Positions 1-6,495 of a stretch of 40,622 nt of DNA are shown piece by piece (the first letter of the stretch is position 1; every line of letters starts with the position of its first letter). The notes under the pieces were generated by a model. That model saw nothing but the letters and a program-made list of their open reading frames with translations. It did not search any database and was not told the DNA's origin. Source of the DNA: a virus (lineage: Duplodnaviria > Heunggongvirae > Uroviricota > Caudoviricetes); the IMG/VR virus record IMGVR_UViG_2534682002_000024. One strand, given 5' to 3'. The position numbers were made by a program, and so were the translations under genes.

Positions 1-1251
1 CTACGCTAAACCAATAAAGAACCCGGCAATGGTGGCACTCATCAGGTTAGAAAGTGTCGCCGCCGCCAGCGCGCGTAAACCAAGCTGGGCGATTTCCGGC
101 GCACGGTGTGGCGCAACCGCAGAAAACGCCCCCACCACCACCCCGATAGAACCAAAGTTAGCGAAACCGCACAACGCGAAGGAAATAATCGCCACGGTTT
201 TAGCATCCAGAGTGCCAGCCGTTTGCAGATAGGGTGAGAAATTGAGATAAGCGACAAATTCATTTATTGCCAGTTTCTGTCCAATCAAACTCCCGGCAAG
301 ATTCGCATCACTCCAGTCAACACCCATTACCCACGCCAGTGGGGCCAGCAGATAACCTACAATGGACTCCAGCGAGGCATGTTCAAAACCAAACCAGCCG
401 CCAACGCCGCCGATAATACCGTTAATTAACGCAATGATGGCGACGAATGCCATCACTACTGTCGCCACACCTGCGGCGATTTTCAGCCCGGTCATTGCCC
501 CTGTCGCGGCGGCTTCAATAATGCTTTTTGGCGGTGTTTCGGTGAAAGAGAGGTTATTAAAAGAAACCTGCGAAGATTCCGTAGCCGGGCTTAGCAGGCG
601 GGCAAACAAGATCCCCCCGGGGATCGCCATTAACGATGCCGCCAGCAAATATTCCACAGGCACGCCCAGTGCGGCATAACCAATCATTGTCGAACCAGCA
701 ATCGAGGCCATGCCGCTACAAATCGCTGTAAATAATTCATTGCGATTCAGCCGATCGATAAAGGGCTTCACAATCGCCGGAATTTCGTTTTGCCCGAGGA
801 AAATGGTAGTGACCGCGACGAATGACTCAATCTTGCTGATATTTAATGCTTTCTGGAATATACCGCCGAGAATGCGAATTAAAATCCCCATCACACCGAT
901 GTAGTAGAGAATACTCACCAGTGCAGTGACGAAGATAATTGCCGGTAATACCCTGAAACCAAAGATAAATCCTGCGCCATCAAATAAGGTGTCCATTTTC
1001 GGTCCGACCAGAGAACCGAAGATAAATGCGCTACCCGCGTCGCTGTACGCCATCACTTTATGCACACCAAAAGCGACTTTTTCAGCGACCCAACGCCCTG
1101 GCGGTAACCAAAGCATAATGCCGCCAATCACGACCTGTAACACTAACGCCGCGCCAACGGTACGCAGGCTGATCTTCTTCTTGTTTACTGACAGTAAAAA
1201 CGCAATCGTCAGCAATACCACCATTCCCAGAACACTTCTCATGACATCCAT
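1..1251 (-). CDS. NupC-family concentrative nucleoside transporter (host gene, 3' end runs off window start)
   Basis: 416-aa multi-pass membrane ORF whose N-terminus MDVMRSVLGMVVLL and overall profile match enterobacterial CNT transporters (NupX/PsuT type); recognised from memory, paralog not resolved. Confidence 0.85.
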   Translation of the reverse strand: MDVMRSVLGMVVLLTIAFLLSVNKKKISLRTVGAALVLQVVIGGIMLWLPPGRWVAEKVAFGVHKVMAYSDAGSAFIFGSLVGPKMDTLFDGAGFIFGFRVLPAIIFVTALVSILYYIGVMGILIRILGGIFQKALNISKIESFVAVTTIFLGQNEIPAIVKPFIDRLNRNELFTAICSGMASIAGSTMIGYAALGVPVEYLLAASLMAIPGGILFARLLSPATESSQVSFNNLSFTETPPKSIIEAAATGAMTGLKIAAGVATVVMAFVAIIALINGIIGGVGGWFGFEHASLESIVGYLLAPLAWVMGVDWSDANLAGSLIGQKLAINEFVAYLNFSPYLQTAGTLDAKTVAIISFALCGFANFGSIGVVVGAFSAVAPHRAPEIAQLGLRALAAATLSNLMSATIAGFFIGLA

Positions 1252-1350
1252 AGTGATTATCTCTTCATGTCATATTGGGCGACGGCTTTCTGCCCATCAG
1301 AAATAGCCAGGCCTGCATCTTGCGATACCGGCCCGGCTTGTTATCAACAC

Positions 1351-1565
1351 TTAATGGGTTTTGATGTAGCCGCGCACGCACTCTTCGACTAAGCCCCAGA
1401 ACCAGTCGCTATCAATAGTGATGCCGACTTTGGTATTAGCGGGCTTGCCAAGAACGCCCAGCTCGTCGCAGACGGTACGCCCATAACAAGGGCCACTGTT
1501 GACGTCCACTTCGACGTACATCTCCTGGGTTTTAATGCCATCAGGGTATAGCGCGGCGATTTTTT
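1351..1565 (-). pseudogene. 3' remnant of a host gene truncated by the prophage; C-terminal pattern resembles nucleoside hydrolase family
   Basis: Track ORF 1351..1581 starts with an ATG that falls inside the putative phage end repeats. The tail (PDG...YVEVDV...GRTVCD...[12 protein letters not shown]) resembles IU-nucleoside hydrolase C-termini and sits beside a nucleoside transporter. Family assignment is from memory only. Confidence 0.4.
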
Positions 1566-1640
1566 TGATACCGATTTGCATTTCATTTGATACTGCTGAA
1601 AAACGCCGATACGCAACTTATTTGATACTAAATCGGCGCT
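1564..1640 (+). repeat. Prophage right-end region with three direct TTTGATAC repeats (candidate MuA-type transposase binding sites)
   Basis: TTTGATAC occurs at 1564, 1586 and 1621. The first two are 22 bp apart, matching the periodicity of Mu end-binding sites, and a TG dinucleotide lies at 1566-1567. This is about 100 bp beyond the mom-like stop, as in Mu. Confidence 0.5.
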
Positions 1641-1674
1641 TTTCTTTTGAGTTTTAGAATGAGTTTTTAAGCGC

Positions 1675-2412
1675 TCATTCACTCTCTTTCAAACCAGTTT
1701 TAACTGTTTGTGGTTTTGGGTAAGGCTGGACTTTGAATAGCTTTGTGTTGAGGCGTTTTTTGGCCCTCTTGTTCAGAAACCGGATGTAACGAAACTGTCG
1801 GAACTTATGAACATTGGCTCTGTCAATATTAGCCCTCAGATGTTCACCTCGTTGTCCGCCTCGTTTAATGGCATTCCTGCAAATCTCGTGATACCACTCG
1901 CCATCAAGTTCATAGAATATTGATTCATGGCTGCCTACATAATCAAAATTGCTTGCCTGATACACGACACCAAGACAGCCACAACGCTCATCTGCAAACG
2001 ACTGAACCCACTGTACCTGCGGATAAAGCTGCCTGATTAGCTTGAGCGCGTAACTGATTGCCCTTGATTCGGAGTTTCTCGGCATACAGTCATGCAGCCA
2101 TAGCCGGTTAAGCTCCATATATTCTCGGTTCTGCGTACCCGTTACGACGCGTGCACCACTGTTTGGGTTAAGGGCGTAACCCCATTGCATTACGCCAACA
2201 AGTTCCCGTTCTGAAAATATGCCCAGATGAAGGTAGGAGTTATTTACGAAACGGTGGCTGTAATGTTTATTGACGATGACCAGTCTGGCCAGCCAGCAAC
2301 TTATTGTCTCAACCCGCAACTCACGGGAGCCATAACCAACGATATTGTCGTTATAGCGAATAAGTTCAGGCGTGCTGATGATTCGGGATGTGACTTGCTT
2401 TCTGTTCCCCAC
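1675..2412 (-). CDS. mom: Mom-like DNA modification protein (acyltransferase-like)
   Basis: 245-aa ORF that is the last gene before the prophage end and overlaps the 3' end of a Com-like zinc-finger gene, which is the com-mom arrangement of Mu. Size is near Mu Mom (about 231 aa). Identity rests on context, not sequence recall. Confidence 0.6.
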
Positions 2413-2566
2413 GACAGGATTTCCTTGTGTATGTGGGGTGCTCTGTGGCGCTCGGAGATGTGATTTGATTGAGGGTTTTACAGCGCGGACATTTTACTTC
2501 CAGATAACTGAAACTGGCCCGTGCCAGTAGCTTATTGCAGTGTCGGCACCGTATGTTTCGATACAT
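2366..2566 (-). CDS. com: Com-like zinc-finger translational activator
   Basis: [14 protein letters not shown]...VKCPRCK has the CxxC...CxxC spacing and residues of Mu Com (IRC.NCNKLL...CPRCK). An AGGAGG Shine-Dalgarno lies 10 nt upstream of the ATG at 2566. The track ORF begins at an upstream ATG (2611) that I consider less likely. Confidence 0.7.
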
Positions 2567-2599
2567 GGCCGCATAACCTCCTGCTTTGTTGTTGATGCC

Positions 2600-2790
2600 T
2601 TTCTCATGCAATCGATCGACAAAAACGATCGATTCGATTTGTTTAATTGATACAACAAATAGATTGAAAAGTCATCAACAATGATTCAGGTAGGTGATTA
2701 TTTACTTAAAGAAAACGAAGAGTTAGGTGGTGAAAACGATCATAAAATGATCATTTTATTGACTTTTTATATAGTGAAGGTAGGATCGCG
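2600..2790 (-). promoter_or_regulatory. GATC-rich candidate Dam/OxyR-regulated mom promoter region
   Basis: Five GATC sites (2614, 2627, 2738, 2749, 2784) within about 175 bp upstream of com in AT-rich DNA. Mu Pmom is controlled through clustered Dam sites. Confidence 0.4.
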
Positions 2791-2979
2791 CGTATATGTA
2801 GTATGTTTCAAATCAATGGGATACTACATACATAAAGAGCGACCCAGATAGCGCGAACTATTCTGGGCCGATTTAGACAATTTTGCATCAATGCTTTACT
2901 TCGAGCTCGTGGCGTATCCTATGATATTCCCCAGTCTCCTGTAAAGCAGAGATGCATAAAAAGGAGATCTTTATCATGG

Positions 2980-3147
2980 ATGAAAGAGCCTGTTTGCCCT
3001 GCCTGTAAGACTCCCTTACAGCTCATCTATCGCCGTTCTCGATCTCAAAATGGCAAGACATACAAACCAAAAAATGCTTCCTGTTTCAGGATGCTGATAT
3101 GTCCTGCCTGTTCTCCCCGGAGGGAAAATACACAAAACGTGCATTAA
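2980..3147 (+). CDS. Unlisted 55-aa double-CPAC zinc-ribbon ORF (MKEPVCPACKTPLQLIYRRSRSQNGKTYKPKNASCFRMLICPACSPRRENTQNVH)
   Basis: Found by manual translation; below the ORF track size cutoff. AGGAG at 2962-2966 precedes it. Two CPAC motifs plus a third Cys suggest a zinc ribbon. It is divergent from com-mom in an otherwise non-coding gap of about 570 bp. Confidence 0.3.
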   Translation: MKEPVCPACKTPLQLIYRRSRSQNGKTYKPKNASCFRMLICPACSPRRENTQNVH

Positions 3148-3185
3148 CAAATTCACCCGGCAGGGAAACCTGCCGGTCGGTATTG

Positions 3186-3431
3186 TTACATCATAGTACC
3201 GTCAGTTCCGGGCTGAACCGGCTCTGGTTGCTCTACGGGTTGAGGCTCATTTTCCGTGCTGTTTTCAGCCGGAGAACGGCCAACCATTCGGGCCAGCACT
3301 TCATCAACATATGCGTCGATTTGTGCCTCAAAATCCTTGCGAACCTGCGCCTTCAGCACGCGGTTCACTTCTTCAGAATAAAGTGCCTGTTTGACAAGCT
3401 CTTCAGTAACCGTGCCTTTAATCTCTGGCAT
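3186..3431 (-). CDS. Hypothetical 81-aa protein with helical N-terminus and acidic proline-rich tail
   Basis: ORF with AAGGAG-like RBS upstream (caaaaggagaatattc-ATG). No recognisable family. Confidence 0.5.
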   Translation of the reverse strand: MPEIKGTVTEELVKQALYSEEVNRVLKAQVRKDFEAQIDAYVDEVLARMVGRSPAENSTENEPQPVEQPEPVQPGTDGTMM

Positions 3432-3466
3432 GAATATTCTCCTTTTGCAGGTATATTGCCCCGTTA

Positions 3467-3649
3467 TCAGAGCGGGGTCGGGTCGTTTGGGGATGACGGT
3501 GCCTGTGCTGTTTTACTGAGTTTTTCAGCTGCCGCATCATCAATTTTACGGCGAATATAATTTCTGATGACCTTATAACCGCCGCTCACCAGATATAACG
3601 CACTGACCACTGCGCAGAAATAAAGCAGCATTGTATGAACGAATGTCAT
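3467..3649 (-). CDS. Hypothetical 60-aa small membrane protein (one N-terminal TM helix, basic C-terminus)
   Basis: Hydrophobic stretch MLLYFCAVVSALYLVSGGY followed by a charged tail. A GC hairpin (CCCCGttatcagaGCGGGG, about 3453-3470) separates it from the next gene. Confidence 0.45.
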   Translation of the reverse strand: MTFVHTMLLYFCAVVSALYLVSGGYKVIRNYIRRKIDDAAAEKLSKTAQAPSSPNDPTPL

Positions 3650-3795
3650 ATAACCTTACCTTTGATATTGACTACATAATTCGTTATCGGGTAAAAACAT
3701 CGAAGCGACTGATAACTACTCCTTCGGTAGTATTTTTATTTTCCTTTATGGGTTAGGTAGCTCCCGCCAGCCGTATCATGACCGGCGGGATTTTT

Positions 3796-5835
3796 TTATT
3801 CTGTTACCGCTTTTTTCACTTCCACCACAATGCTGTCAATCAGCACCGGGTAAGTTGCATTTTTGGTGATATCCGTTACGCGGAGTTTGTCCACCGGGAA
3901 AGTTCCTACTGGTGACTGCGTCAGGGTAAACGCGGCACCATCCTGACCATCAATAACCGGAATAACCTGAAGGCTGTTATTTCCTGCAAAACGGAAGGCC
4001 AGCGTATGCCATTCATTATCAAATGCACCAAAGGTTCCCAGTTTCTGGTTATTTGTTGCCACTTTTGCATTGTGGTACATCACATTCAGGTCTTTTGCGT
4101 CTGTCTGGATGTAGAACGATGCCAGCAGATTATTCCCTGCATCCCCTGTCAGGGTGACACCCTGCGGCAGAGAGGAAACCGGCCAGTAAAGCGCCATGAC
4201 ATACTGGTTTGCCACCAGGTCGCCAGGTACTTTAAAACGACAACTGATTAAACCACCATTTTTCAGCAGTTCAGCACCAGTACCGGCATCATGATCCAGA
4301 TACCAGGATGATTTACCTGTTTCCTTGGTCAGTTTCATTGCCTTACCACCTGTGCCTCCTGCATCACTGATAATTTCAGCTTTACCGCCAGCCGGCTCCC
4401 AGCCCTGGGCTTTCAGATTTCCTTCTGACTCACTGACACGGTAAGACAGCAGTGTTGTGGTTACTGCTTCAGTTTCTGAAGGTGACGGCACTGGTGCTTC
4501 AGTTTCAGAAGATGGAACATCGGCTTTTACTGTGGTTCGCCCTGCATGAGTCAGAACAGCCGTGGCCAGACGGTCAGAAATAATACCCCGGCGCGCCCAG
4601 GCACTGAAATGGCTGGCCCGGTCCGCAGATGTCCAGGTAGCGGCACTGTTACGCCACGTTGAGCCGTAATAACCAATGGATTCAATATCCGGGTCTTCTG
4701 CCGGATTGTTGGTGGGTACATTCACGCCATTTTCATCTGTCATTAATGGAACGAAATGAATGTTTTTATCTGTTTTGTTTTTGTAGCCGCCATAGATTGC
4801 CTGGTATGCTGGTTCATTTTTCTGTTTCCAGAAATACGTGGTATCGCCACAAATCCACGGAACGCCAGCAGCACTGCCACCGGTACACTGTTCCGCCTGT
4901 TCAGCCAGGTCTGCGCGGAATTTTTCCACCATCGCCAGAAACAGCGCAGAATGCTCCGTCGGCTTCGCATCAATATCAAACTCGCCCTGCATCCACACCA
5001 CAGCAAGCAGGCGGTTTTTCGGGTTCTTCGCCAGTGCCGCTTTTGTCCGGCTGATTAAGTCCTTATACAGCGGCTTATCCACACCCCAGCGGGCTGAGTC
5101 CTCTGAAGCACCCGTGCTGTCACTGTACGTGCCGTCAGCACCCGCCGTGAATGCAGAACCACCACGGCAGCAGGGAACCAGCAGAATCCCCGCATCTGCC
5201 GGAATAAACGGCAGCAGTTTTTTGGCAATGTGAAGCCCCTGACCCACGGTGCCATATTGCCCTTTAGCCACATCCGCTTTCGGGTGATTTTTTCCACTCA
5301 TATCCTGCACATCATGCAGACAGTGGTCGGCCAGAATGATGTCGTTATACTGACAGGCTTTACCTCCCGGCGTGACTGTACTGCGACGGGCTAACTGCAT
5401 AATACGCGGTTCGGGGCGGTCATATGTCTCCGGCAGTGGCAGACCTTCACCGTAAGCCATACCGTTTGACTGACCAGCAAGAACCACCACGTAATACCAG
5501 GAAGGGGAGCTGGAAGCAGTTTCATTTCCTGACGGACGGGTATGTGTTTCAGCATTATCCCAGTCTGACGGTTCAGCAGTACCGGCAACATCAGCACTTA
5601 ACGGAATGACCGCACCAATACCCGCTCCGGTAATTTCCACACTCGGATCACCGGATACTGGCCTTACCCACAGGCAATCCCGTGTATTAAAACTGATGAG
5701 ACAGTCAGCAAATGTCATTCCTCCTTTTGTTTCGGCCGGAGGAAAGGGAGCCTCAAGAAATGCCGCTGTACCACCGGAAACTTTAACAGTAAAGTTTCCG
5801 GGCATTGATGATAGTTGAACCCATTTGGACGTCAT
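3796..5835 (-). CDS. 679-aa SGNH/SASA-type carbohydrate esterase with lectin-like beta-sandwich C-terminal domain (cargo gene)
   Basis: VVVLAGQSNGMAYGEG carries the GQSN motif typical of sialate O-acetylesterase-like (SASA/DUF303) SGNH hydrolases. No N-terminal signal peptide. An S/T/P-rich linker precedes a C-terminal region that looks like a concanavalin/laminin-G type domain. It occupies the gin to com-mom interval. Confidence 0.6.
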   Translation of the reverse strand: MTSKWVQLSSMPGNFTVKVSGGTAAFLEAPFPPAETKGGMTFADCLISFNTRDCLWVRPVSGDPSVEITGAGIGAVIPLSADVAGTAEPSDWDNAETHTRPSGNETASSSPSWYYVVVLAGQSNGMAYGEGLPLPETYDRPEPRIMQLARRSTVTPGGKACQYNDIILADHCLHDVQDMSGKNHPKADVAKGQYGTVGQGLHIAKKLLPFIPADAGILLVPCCRGGSAFTAGADGTYSDSTGASEDSARWGVDKPLYKDLISRTKAALAKNPKNRLLAVVWMQGEFDIDAKPTEHSALFLAMVEKFRADLAEQAEQCTGGSAAGVPWICGDTTYFWKQKNEPAYQAIYGGYKNKTDKNIHFVPLMTDENGVNVPTNNPAEDPDIESIGYYGSTWRNSAATWTSADRASHFSAWARRGIISDRLATAVLTHAGRTTVKADVPSSETEAPVPSPSETEAVTTTLLSYRVSESEGNLKAQGWEPAGGKAEIISDAGGTGGKAMKLTKETGKSSWYLDHDAGTGAELLKNGGLISCRFKVPGDLVANQYVMALYWPVSSLPQGVTLTGDAGNNLLASFYIQTDAKDLNVMYHNAKVATNNQKLGTFGAFDNEWHTLAFRFAGNNSLQVIPVIDGQDGAAFTLTQSPVGTFPVDKLRVTDITKNATYPVLIDSIVVEVKKAVTE

Positions 5836-5934: not shown

Positions 5935-6495
5935 TTATTTTTCCGAAACGCTCGCAGGATAATAACGATAAAGGGTTGAAAGACCGATATCAAAAATAAG
6001 TGCCACCTGTCTTCGACTGACACCCCCGGCCAGTAAACGCCCGACCTGCTCGTATTGTTCCTGCGTGAGACGGCGGGGTCTGCCGCCGGTTCGTCCCCTT
6101 TCACGGGCAGCTGCAAGACCAGCCCGTGTCCGTTCGACAATTAATTCACGCTCCATTTCTGCCAGCGCACCCATTATGTGAAAAAAGAAGCGCCCCATGG
6201 GGGTTGACGTATCAATGTTGTCAGTAAGACTACGAAAATTTATCCCCTGTTGCTGTAATTCATCTGTCAGCGCAACAAGGTGGCGCATACTGCGCCCCAG
6301 CCTGTCCAGTTTCCAGACCATCAGCGTGTCACCGGGTTTTAGTTTCTTCAGTGCCCGCTTCAGTCCCGGCCGCTGTGTCGTTTTACCACTCATTTTGTCT
6401 TCAAAAATCTGCTCACATCCTGCACATTCCAGCGCATTTCTTTGTAAACCGGTGTTCTGGTCATTTGTTGATACGCGTATATAGCCAATCAGCAT
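5935..6495 (-). CDS. gin: Gin/Pin/Hin-family serine DNA invertase
   Basis: MLIGYIRVSTNDQNTGLQRNALECAGCEQIFEDK...WKLDRLGRSMRHL is nearly identical in pattern to Gin/Pin. 186 aa. Transcribed away from the adjacent invertible segment. Confidence 0.9.
   Translation of the reverse strand: MLIGYIRVSTNDQNTGLQRNALECAGCEQIFEDKMSGKTTQRPGLKRALKKLKPGDTLMVWKLDRLGRSMRHLVALTDELQQQGINFRSLTDNIDTSTPMGRFFFHIMGALAEMERELIVERTRAGLAAARERGRTGGRPRRLTQEQYEQVGRLLAGGVSRRQVALIFDIGLSTLYRYYPASVSEK

Follow-up and report, generated by a model that had tools for sequence, protein, structure and literature searches.

We analysed a DNA stretch of 40,622 nucleotides (the window; IMG/VR record IMGVR_UViG_2534682002_000024) that contains the right end of a Mu-like prophage, and focused on two small genes lying between a NanS-p-type sialate O-acetylesterase gene and com-mom (Table 1). 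The gin, esterase, com and mom genes and both small open reading frames (ORFs) all lie on the minus strand. An original prediction, made from the letters alone, had placed ORFs of 60 and 81 amino acids in this interval, and we recovered both with the same boundaries and orientation. Both genes belong to already catalogued enterobacterial prophage families, DUF1378 and DUF826, and do not form a new system. They are the last two genes of a mobile ~2.7-kb cassette that comprises the esterase gene, an antisense Pas-like small-RNA (sRNA) unit, DUF1378 and DUF826.

Table 1. Features of the window that bear on the DUF1378-DUF826 pair, with positions counted from the first letter of the window (E, expectation value).
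Feature	Position	Strand	Evidence or remark
DUF1378 gene, 60 amino acids	3467..3649	-	PF07125, E 1.2e-38; phrog_494, E 3.5e-34; RefSeq WP_000144787.1 'DUF1378 family protein'
DUF826 gene, 81 amino acids	3186..3431	-	PF05696, E 3.1e-15; phrog_311, E 5.4e-30; RefSeq WP_001114107.1
DUF1378-DUF826 junction	3439..3477	-	5-bp GC hairpin at 3459-3477 and AAGGAG ribosome-binding site at 3439-3444
Antisense promoter-to-terminator unit	3668..3797	+	candidate sRNA of ~94 nt (~3704-3797) in the 146-nt esterase-DUF1378 spacer
NanS-p-type sialate O-acetylesterase gene, 679 amino acids	3796..5835	-	PF03629 SASA and PF20350 DUF6645; phrog_143; first cassette gene
GC hairpin, 8 bp, directly downstream of DUF826	3157..3176	not assigned	fold dG -21.7, z = -2.9
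gin-type DNA invertase gene	5935..6495	-	74.6% identical to Mu gin in nucleotide sequence; bounds the inserted cassette upstream
com	2366..2611	-	PF10122 Com; downstream backbone boundary
mom (Mom family)	1675-2412	-	PF25680 Mom; 71% nucleotide identity to Mu; after com
Truncated rihB fragment, 76-amino-acid ORF	1351-1581	-	aligns with residues 248-313 of the RihB (ribosylpyrimidine nucleosidase) model, which has 313 residues
nupC-family transporter gene	1-1251	-	beyond mom, beside the rihB fragment

A profile-database search, which had been proposed as a check on the 60-residue protein, returned PF07125 (DUF1378) over its full length: residues 1-59 aligned with positions 1-59 of the 59-position model at 131.5 bits, against a gathering cut-off of 25. 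A single segment of the protein is hydrophobic (helix at residues ~3-24; a Kyte-Doolittle scan in 19-residue steps peaks at 2.02 for residues 3-21), and AlphaFold2 modelled one helix spanning residues 2-49 with a disordered end. DUF1378 is a predicted 60-residue bitopic inner-membrane protein with a basic segment that would face the cytoplasm. The single membrane pass of the original prediction was borne out, but its "basic tail" was not, since the +5 cluster (residues 26-36) adjoins the membrane segment and the distal tail (residues 37-60), which is disordered and proline-rich (Pro/Ser/Thr), has a net charge of -2. The window protein shares with PF07125/PHROG 494 the length, the invariant motif LYF..V..LYL.SGGY..R...R..I..A.EK and the position after a SASA esterase; however, it is only 52-55% identical to the copies of 933W, VT2-Sakai and most Shiga toxin (Stx) phages, and it resides in a Mu-like rather than a lambdoid prophage. 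All 262 of 262 DUF1378 clusters came from Escherichia, Shigella or Citrobacter, and none carried a functional name. The gene is unannotated in the VT2-Sakai record and in many Stx-phage records. A scan of genome contigs with the DUF1378 alignment gave no confirmed match.

The 81-residue protein matched PF05696 (DUF826) at 56.5 bits against a cut-off of 25, with residues 1-52 covering positions 1-52 of the 75-position model. It is strongly acidic (isoelectric point 4.4, net charge -8), and the acidic, proline-rich tail that had been described was confirmed: residues 53-81 carry a net charge of -6 and six prolines, vary among homologs and end in ...TDGTMM. AlphaFold2 placed helices at residues 10-17 and 20-50 with a predicted local distance difference test (pLDDT) score above 90, and a disordered tail from residue 56 with a pLDDT below 50. 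We describe DUF826 as a predicted cytoplasmic acidic protein with a conserved N-terminal helical domain (residues 1-52) and a variable tail. In the fit of its first 52 residues to the model, and in the combination of a helical domain with a variable acidic tail, it resembles all long members of PF05696/PHROG 311, but it is ~42% identical to the Stx-phage copies. A DUF826 profile search over 1.84 billion representative proteins yielded 41 representatives (at 50% identity). Searches of both proteins against PDB profiles gave no significant match, and Foldseek found no PDB match for the DUF826 model.

The label "head completion protein" that DUF826 bears in PhiR phages is backed by no profile. 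YdfR, a Qin-prophage protein of E. coli K-12 that binds RNase E (PMC13232886), was considered as a possible DUF826 member and rejected as unrelated; it belongs to DUF1327, and BLASTP gave no alignment to the window protein. In VT2-Sakai, the deposited orf43 (L002 4047-4466, 139 amino acids; cf. phrog_8301) shares part of its sequence with the DUF1378 gene, read in a different frame, and is apparently the 81-residue DUF826 gene (4221-4466) annotated too long.

To place the pair in its genomic contexts, we mapped marker proteins onto 85 loci, 80 of them IMG/VR loci found with the DUF1378 alignment and five taken from databases. DUF1378 lay directly after the esterase gene, on the same strand, wherever enough upstream sequence was present, and DUF826 followed directly in all but one locus. 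Three contexts were observed: 54 loci were lambdoid, with the order stx/Q - esterase - DUF1378 - DUF826 - holin and then endolysin (e.g., VT2-Sakai and PhiR5_2), 30 were Mu-like, with the order gin - esterase - DUF1378 - DUF826 - com/mom, and one was P2-like. In this last locus, which is also the exception that has no DUF826 (L076; IMGVR_UViG_2671181127_000013, 2788-5174), the esterase, with a DUF1737-like N-terminus, and DUF1378 stand between spanin and tail-completion genes. The same trio order recurred at 15 further independent places in E. coli, Shigella and Citrobacter, and at three remote DUF826 representatives.

In the phage collection, 351 records matched a NanS-p-like esterase, 309 DUF1378 and 306 DUF826. 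Megablast and blastn retrieved only two records, both with the same Mu-like insert; the lambdoid copies, too diverged at the DNA level, surfaced only by tblastn. RefSeq holds identical proteins under the DUF1378 and DUF826 names in identical prophages. The holins that adjoin lambdoid cassettes belong to at least three families (PF04971, PF16080 and S21-type), and the Mu-like and P2-like sites have no adjacent downstream holin; the esterase is therefore the constant partner of the pair. We conclude that the gene pair is not autonomous but travels with the esterase cassette, which normally resides after Q/stx and ahead of the holin gene in the late (Q-dependent) operon of lambdoid Stx-type prophages. 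The idea of a two-gene unit stands, in that the pair is co-oriented and conserved in related elements, the opposite of the refuting outcome named with the original prediction, but its conserved link is to the esterase and not to Mu or to prophage ends.

A close counterpart of the window cassette is the nanS-p region of Stx prophages (933W L0105 with two small ORFs; VT2-Sakai orf42-orf43), which has the same three genes in the same order and orientation, and the same antisense unit in the first spacer. The window differs in being flanked by gin and com/mom, with no Q, stx or holin, in a stronger intercistronic ribosome-binding site and in the N-terminus of its esterase. The esterase gene is ~78% identical in nucleotide sequence to lambdoid nanS-p over 3807-5498; however, its first 113 residues (5497-5835, minus strand) are unrelated to the DUF1737 domain of the lambdoid versions, and DUF1737 (PF08410) had no match in the protein. 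This distinct N-terminus occurs in Mu-context alleles and was found in the phage database only in this Mu-like insert. At one Mu-context locus (L028), the esterase retains DUF1737. NanS-p of phi24B is a capsid-decorating protein that is assembled in the cytoplasm and bound via its N-terminal DUF1737 (bioRxiv 10.64898/2026.04.10.717836). The presence of the 113-residue N-terminus in place of the capsid-binding DUF1737 suggests that the virion-docking domain of the esterase has been swapped between phage backbones.

The gin - com - mom order and orientation of canonical Mu are preserved in the window. In Mu, however, com follows gin after 94 bp that contain no ORF, whereas ~3.3 kb separate the two genes in the window, a stretch made up of the cassette and a variable segment. 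Only gin and mom of the window align to Mu (71-75% nucleotide identity), and a tblastn search of 50,697 phage records with the DUF1378 and DUF826 proteins gave no Mu match. Given these alignments and the short gin-com interval of Mu, the two small genes do not belong to the Mu gene set. The earlier statement that neither resembles a known Mu gene is accurate for Mu itself, but both can be assigned to families named in Pfam and PHROG.

Between the esterase and DUF1378 genes we found a conserved antisense promoter-to-terminator unit. A promoter (TTGACT at 3668-3673, an 18-nt gap and TAAAAA at 3692-3697) is followed by a body with a small CUUCGG-type hairpin and a U-rich stretch, and by a terminator that has a GC stem (3762-3768/3784-3790) and whose T7 run (3791-3797) reaches into the stop codon of the esterase gene. 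At the other end, 19 nt separate the -35 element and the start codon of DUF1378. This architecture was present in 31-33 of 36 unique spacers, and the alignment also took in the validated sRNA PasC. An nhmmer profile of lambdoid spacers and Pas units, built without any Mu-type sequence, matched the window only at 3654-3797 of the plus strand (E 2.4e-7). Rfam holds no model for the unit, and no Rfam family matched anywhere in the window.

PasA and PasC of the enteropathogenic E. coli strain E2348/69 are Northern-validated, Hfq-dependent sRNAs that are both antisense to an esterase gene; PasC lies at 1290909-1290832, next to the esterase end at 1290830 (PMC8550237 Table S6). Zhu, Shabalina and Storz (bioRxiv 10.64898/2026.05.13.724894) described the esterase-PasA/C-holin synteny with DUF1378 and DUF826 unmentioned. 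Like these sRNAs (EcOnc51/52 in enterohaemorrhagic E. coli), the window unit is antisense, terminates at the esterase stop codon or close to it, shares their promoter and terminator layout and matches the profile. It differs in a diverged body, blastn recovering only the promoter-proximal and terminator parts in one class, and in its surroundings, the E2348/69 sRNAs filling an esterase-holin gap devoid of DUF1378 and DUF826. A stable, Hfq-bound transcript of ~80 nt has been demonstrated for E2348/69 only, whereas the window unit is known here from its sequence. By profile and architecture, we regard the window unit as homologous to the PasA/PasC locus and its product as a candidate sRNA. In prophage PP2 of E2348/69 (L097 2765-3045), antisense promoter-terminator units occur twice in tandem within the 447 bp between the esterase and holin genes; one is PasA and the other is PasC-like, ending at the esterase stop codon. 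The tandem arrangement explains the "minor" 236-nt PasA species (PMC8550237).

The original prediction had also drawn attention to a GC hairpin just ahead of an AAGGAG ribosome-binding site between the two small genes. The ribosome-binding site is genuine and lies 7 nt ahead of the DUF826 ATG, but the hairpin is weak. Its CCCCG/CGGGG stem encloses a 9-nt loop in which DUF1378 ends (stop codon at 3467-3469). The fold of the 66-nt junction had z = -0.38, and among 200 shuffled versions 67 were as stable. Other Mu-type alleles have a different 7-bp stem at this position (z = -2.3), and most lambdoid alleles have no junction hairpin and a weak ribosome-binding site. We rejected the hairpin as a regulatory element, as it was no more stable than shuffles and not conserved. 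The 35-nt intercistronic spacing and the AAGGAG/AAGGAGG site were constant in Mu-context alleles only.

Beyond DUF826, the stronger hairpin at 3157-3176 is shared with a convergent plus-strand ORF (2980-3147), and homology among Mu-context cassettes begins at 3150/3157; this hairpin is likely the 3' end of the cassette transcript. The stem is not followed by a full U-tract, which accounts for its absence from the signal-scan list. A promoter scan in and upstream of the gene pair gave nothing above shuffle expectation.

Both genes are real and under purifying selection. The DUF1378 core had a ratio of nonsynonymous to synonymous substitution rates (dN/dS) of 0.13, the N-domain of DUF826 one of 0.24, and the tails were relaxed. 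Within the Mu-context set, dN/dS was 0.1-0.3 at dS values up to ~1, which argues that the pair has been kept under selection away from any lysis cassette. Relative to the window copy, Mu-context alleles were 100, 88, 78, 76, 74 and 59% identical for DUF1378, 100 and 72% for DUF826, and 100, 66 and 60% for the esterase. The Mu-like lineage has carried the cassette for a long time. Nucleotide homology with lambdoid copies was confined to the DUF1378 core (3516-3622). Pairwise distances of the DUF1378 core correlated more closely with those of the DUF826 N-domain (r = 0.59, a moderate value) than with those of the esterase C-terminus (r = 0.41).

We tentatively propose, at somewhat less than an even chance, that the pair consists of a membrane-anchored protein and its cytoplasmic partner. 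The two would be expressed along with the esterase and, at a late stage of infection, would have a role at the inner membrane that is tied to the esterase cassette. The promoter scan having found no signal of the pair's own, the two genes would be transcribed together with the esterase gene. By the positive-inside rule, DUF1378 would adopt an N-out/C-in orientation in the inner membrane, so that the basic, membrane-adjoining helical stretch would face the cytoplasm. DUF826, cytoplasmic and with an acidic disordered tail, would be its likely partner; the complementary charges (+5 at residues 26-36 of DUF1378 against a net -8) and the distance correlation of the two proteins would be in keeping with a physical complex. 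The pair might work at the inner membrane before lysis, for example by retaining the esterase or a different late protein there or by passing it on, and would have no immunity or toxin role expressed in the lysogen.

Several observations weigh against this proposal. About 12% of the phage records with a NanS-p-like esterase have no gene pair, which indicates that the esterase does not need it. Examples are Stx1a_14040, whose esterase-holin gap is 447 bp, as in E2348/69 PP2, and contains no comparable ORF, PP2 itself, and PP5 of E2348/69, which has no annotated DUF1378 or DUF826 gene after the esterase. Since NanS-p of phi24B is assembled in the cytoplasm and decorates the capsid, there is also no obvious need for a membrane partner. 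Tail-less DUF826 proteins of 59-60 amino acids stand alone at other prophage positions. In 17 sequence pairs, near-identical DUF826 N-domains went with DUF1378 proteins that differed by >30%; alleles of the two genes reassort, as also seen at L005, which argues against allele-specific co-adaptation. The linkage could be structural, because the sRNA unit overlaps the esterase stop codon and begins 19 nt from the DUF1378 start, so that few sites of recombination would be tolerated. Finally, the DUF826 and DUF1378 ORFs between nanS-p and S have been listed as of "unknown function" (PMC10462455). A literature search by locus tag (Z1467, ECs1208, L0106/L0107) found nothing relevant.

Among the alternatives, a role as a lysis accessory survives best, although we consider it unlikely. 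The pair would then tune lysis timing, with DUF1378 as an antiholin-like or a signal-arrest-release (SAR) endolysin-regulating membrane protein and DUF826 as a cytoplasmic modulator, and the link to the esterase would be only positional; we presume that T4 RI/RIII or the Mu "releasin" would be the analogous systems. In lambdoid prophages, by far the commonest context, DUF826 and the holin gene share one late operon and are 6-160 bp apart, and DUF1378 resembles many lysis regulators in being small and single-pass with a charged cytoplasmic segment. However, the adjoining holins come from unrelated Pfam families, at least three in number, so that no specific partner is conserved, and the holin and endolysin are no different in lambdoid cassettes devoid of the pair. 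The lambdoid loci have a separate holin gene, and no holin or antiholin Pfam model matched either protein. Moreover, the Mu-like pair, between gin and com/mom with no lysis gene nearby, is still under purifying selection, and DUF1378 of the P2-like locus comes after spanin genes and before tail genes.

The original prediction had raised superinfection exclusion or toxicity, as often applies to small membrane proteins at prophage ends, and our results lend this no support. In its most explicit form, DUF1378 would be a toxic or exclusion membrane protein controlled by the upstream antisense sRNA, as in a type I toxin-antitoxin system or in abortive infection, with DUF826 as a modulator. DUF1378 is indeed small, hydrophobic and single-pass, the conserved antisense unit, located 19-148 nt ahead of the DUF1378 start codon, would be complementary to a read-through mRNA, and the position of the Mu-like cassette after gin could allow expression in the lysogen. 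Yet neither protein matched any of the 5027 PADLOC defence-system models at E up to 1, Pfam and NCBIfam gave no informative match to a described defence or exclusion protein, and the weak TraQ matches (E 0.04-0.16) probably reflect transmembrane composition. Nor are the sRNA unit and DUF1378 obligately paired: PasA and PasC are abundant in E2348/69 without any DUF1378 gene and have trans targets (PMC8550237), and L005 has DUF1378 after a 63-nt spacer with no sRNA unit. The sRNA is also clear of the DUF1378 ribosome-binding site and coding sequence, and the Q-dependent late operon that houses the pair in most genomes has the wrong timing for immunity. Rather than a defence locus at a prophage end, the pair is the distal part of the esterase cassette, and we consider a toxin or exclusion function improbable.

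It is just as improbable that the pair is a passive hitch-hiker, useless in the Mu-like prophage and persisting by linkage to the esterase with which it arrived: the cassette did move as one unit, other prophages have a working esterase but not the pair, and only the DUF1378 core shows nucleotide homology to lambdoid copies, but all Mu-context alleles are intact and of constant length, have the strong AAGGAG/AAGGAGG site and the fixed spacing, and show the low dN/dS described above.

The surroundings of the cassette yielded further observations. The adjacency of the rihB fragment to a nupC-family gene places the prophage end at about 1600-1675 and indicates that the prophage disrupted rihB. 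Other strains carry the same type of prophage in comEC, etk or a flagellar locus, or within Stx prophages, which fits transposition. The variable segment (~2676-3156), from the mom promoter region to the hairpin after DUF826, has no lambdoid counterpart; other Mu-like prophages share only 2612-2675 or 2612-2953 of the stretch upstream of com. It contains plus-strand ORFs at 2681-2851 and 2980-3147, labelled in RefSeq as a frameshifted hypothetical gene, and the distal ORF, which converges on DUF826, encodes 55 amino acids with two zinc-ribbon-like CxxC pairs. Directly upstream of com, at 2610-2634 (plus strand), is a GATC-rich, 9-bp palindromic hairpin (AATCGATCG...CGATCGATT), which we take to resemble the Dam-methylation-controlled mom regulatory region of Mu. 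A near-identical prophage of strain 90-3040 has an annotated DNA cytosine methyltransferase gene (L001 4461-5513) where the window has its Mom-family gene; the DNA-modification module at the right end is exchangeable.

Overall, our analyses add to the two catalogued families a linkage that holds across phage backbones, evidence of selection and an adjoining Pas-type sRNA locus. In most Stx phages of the collection (309/351 esterase records), the pair lies directly downstream of stx and nanS-p, and it is presumably made together with Shiga toxin upon prophage induction. Hypotheses on its function are narrowed towards a role linked to the esterase or to the late stage, and away from Mu biology or immunity. 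A bolder extension, which we rate as rather unlikely, is that the cassette is a self-contained module for life in mucus that moves among lambdoid, Mu-like and P2-like phages while swapping the docking domain of its esterase, with DUF1378 and DUF826 as dedicated membrane-anchored handling factors. If so, the pair would keep the signal-less esterase at the inner membrane, set the moment at which it is loaded onto virions or released at lysis, or modulate the uptake of sialic acid by the host, and would represent a new class of accessory proteins for a phage-borne enzyme.

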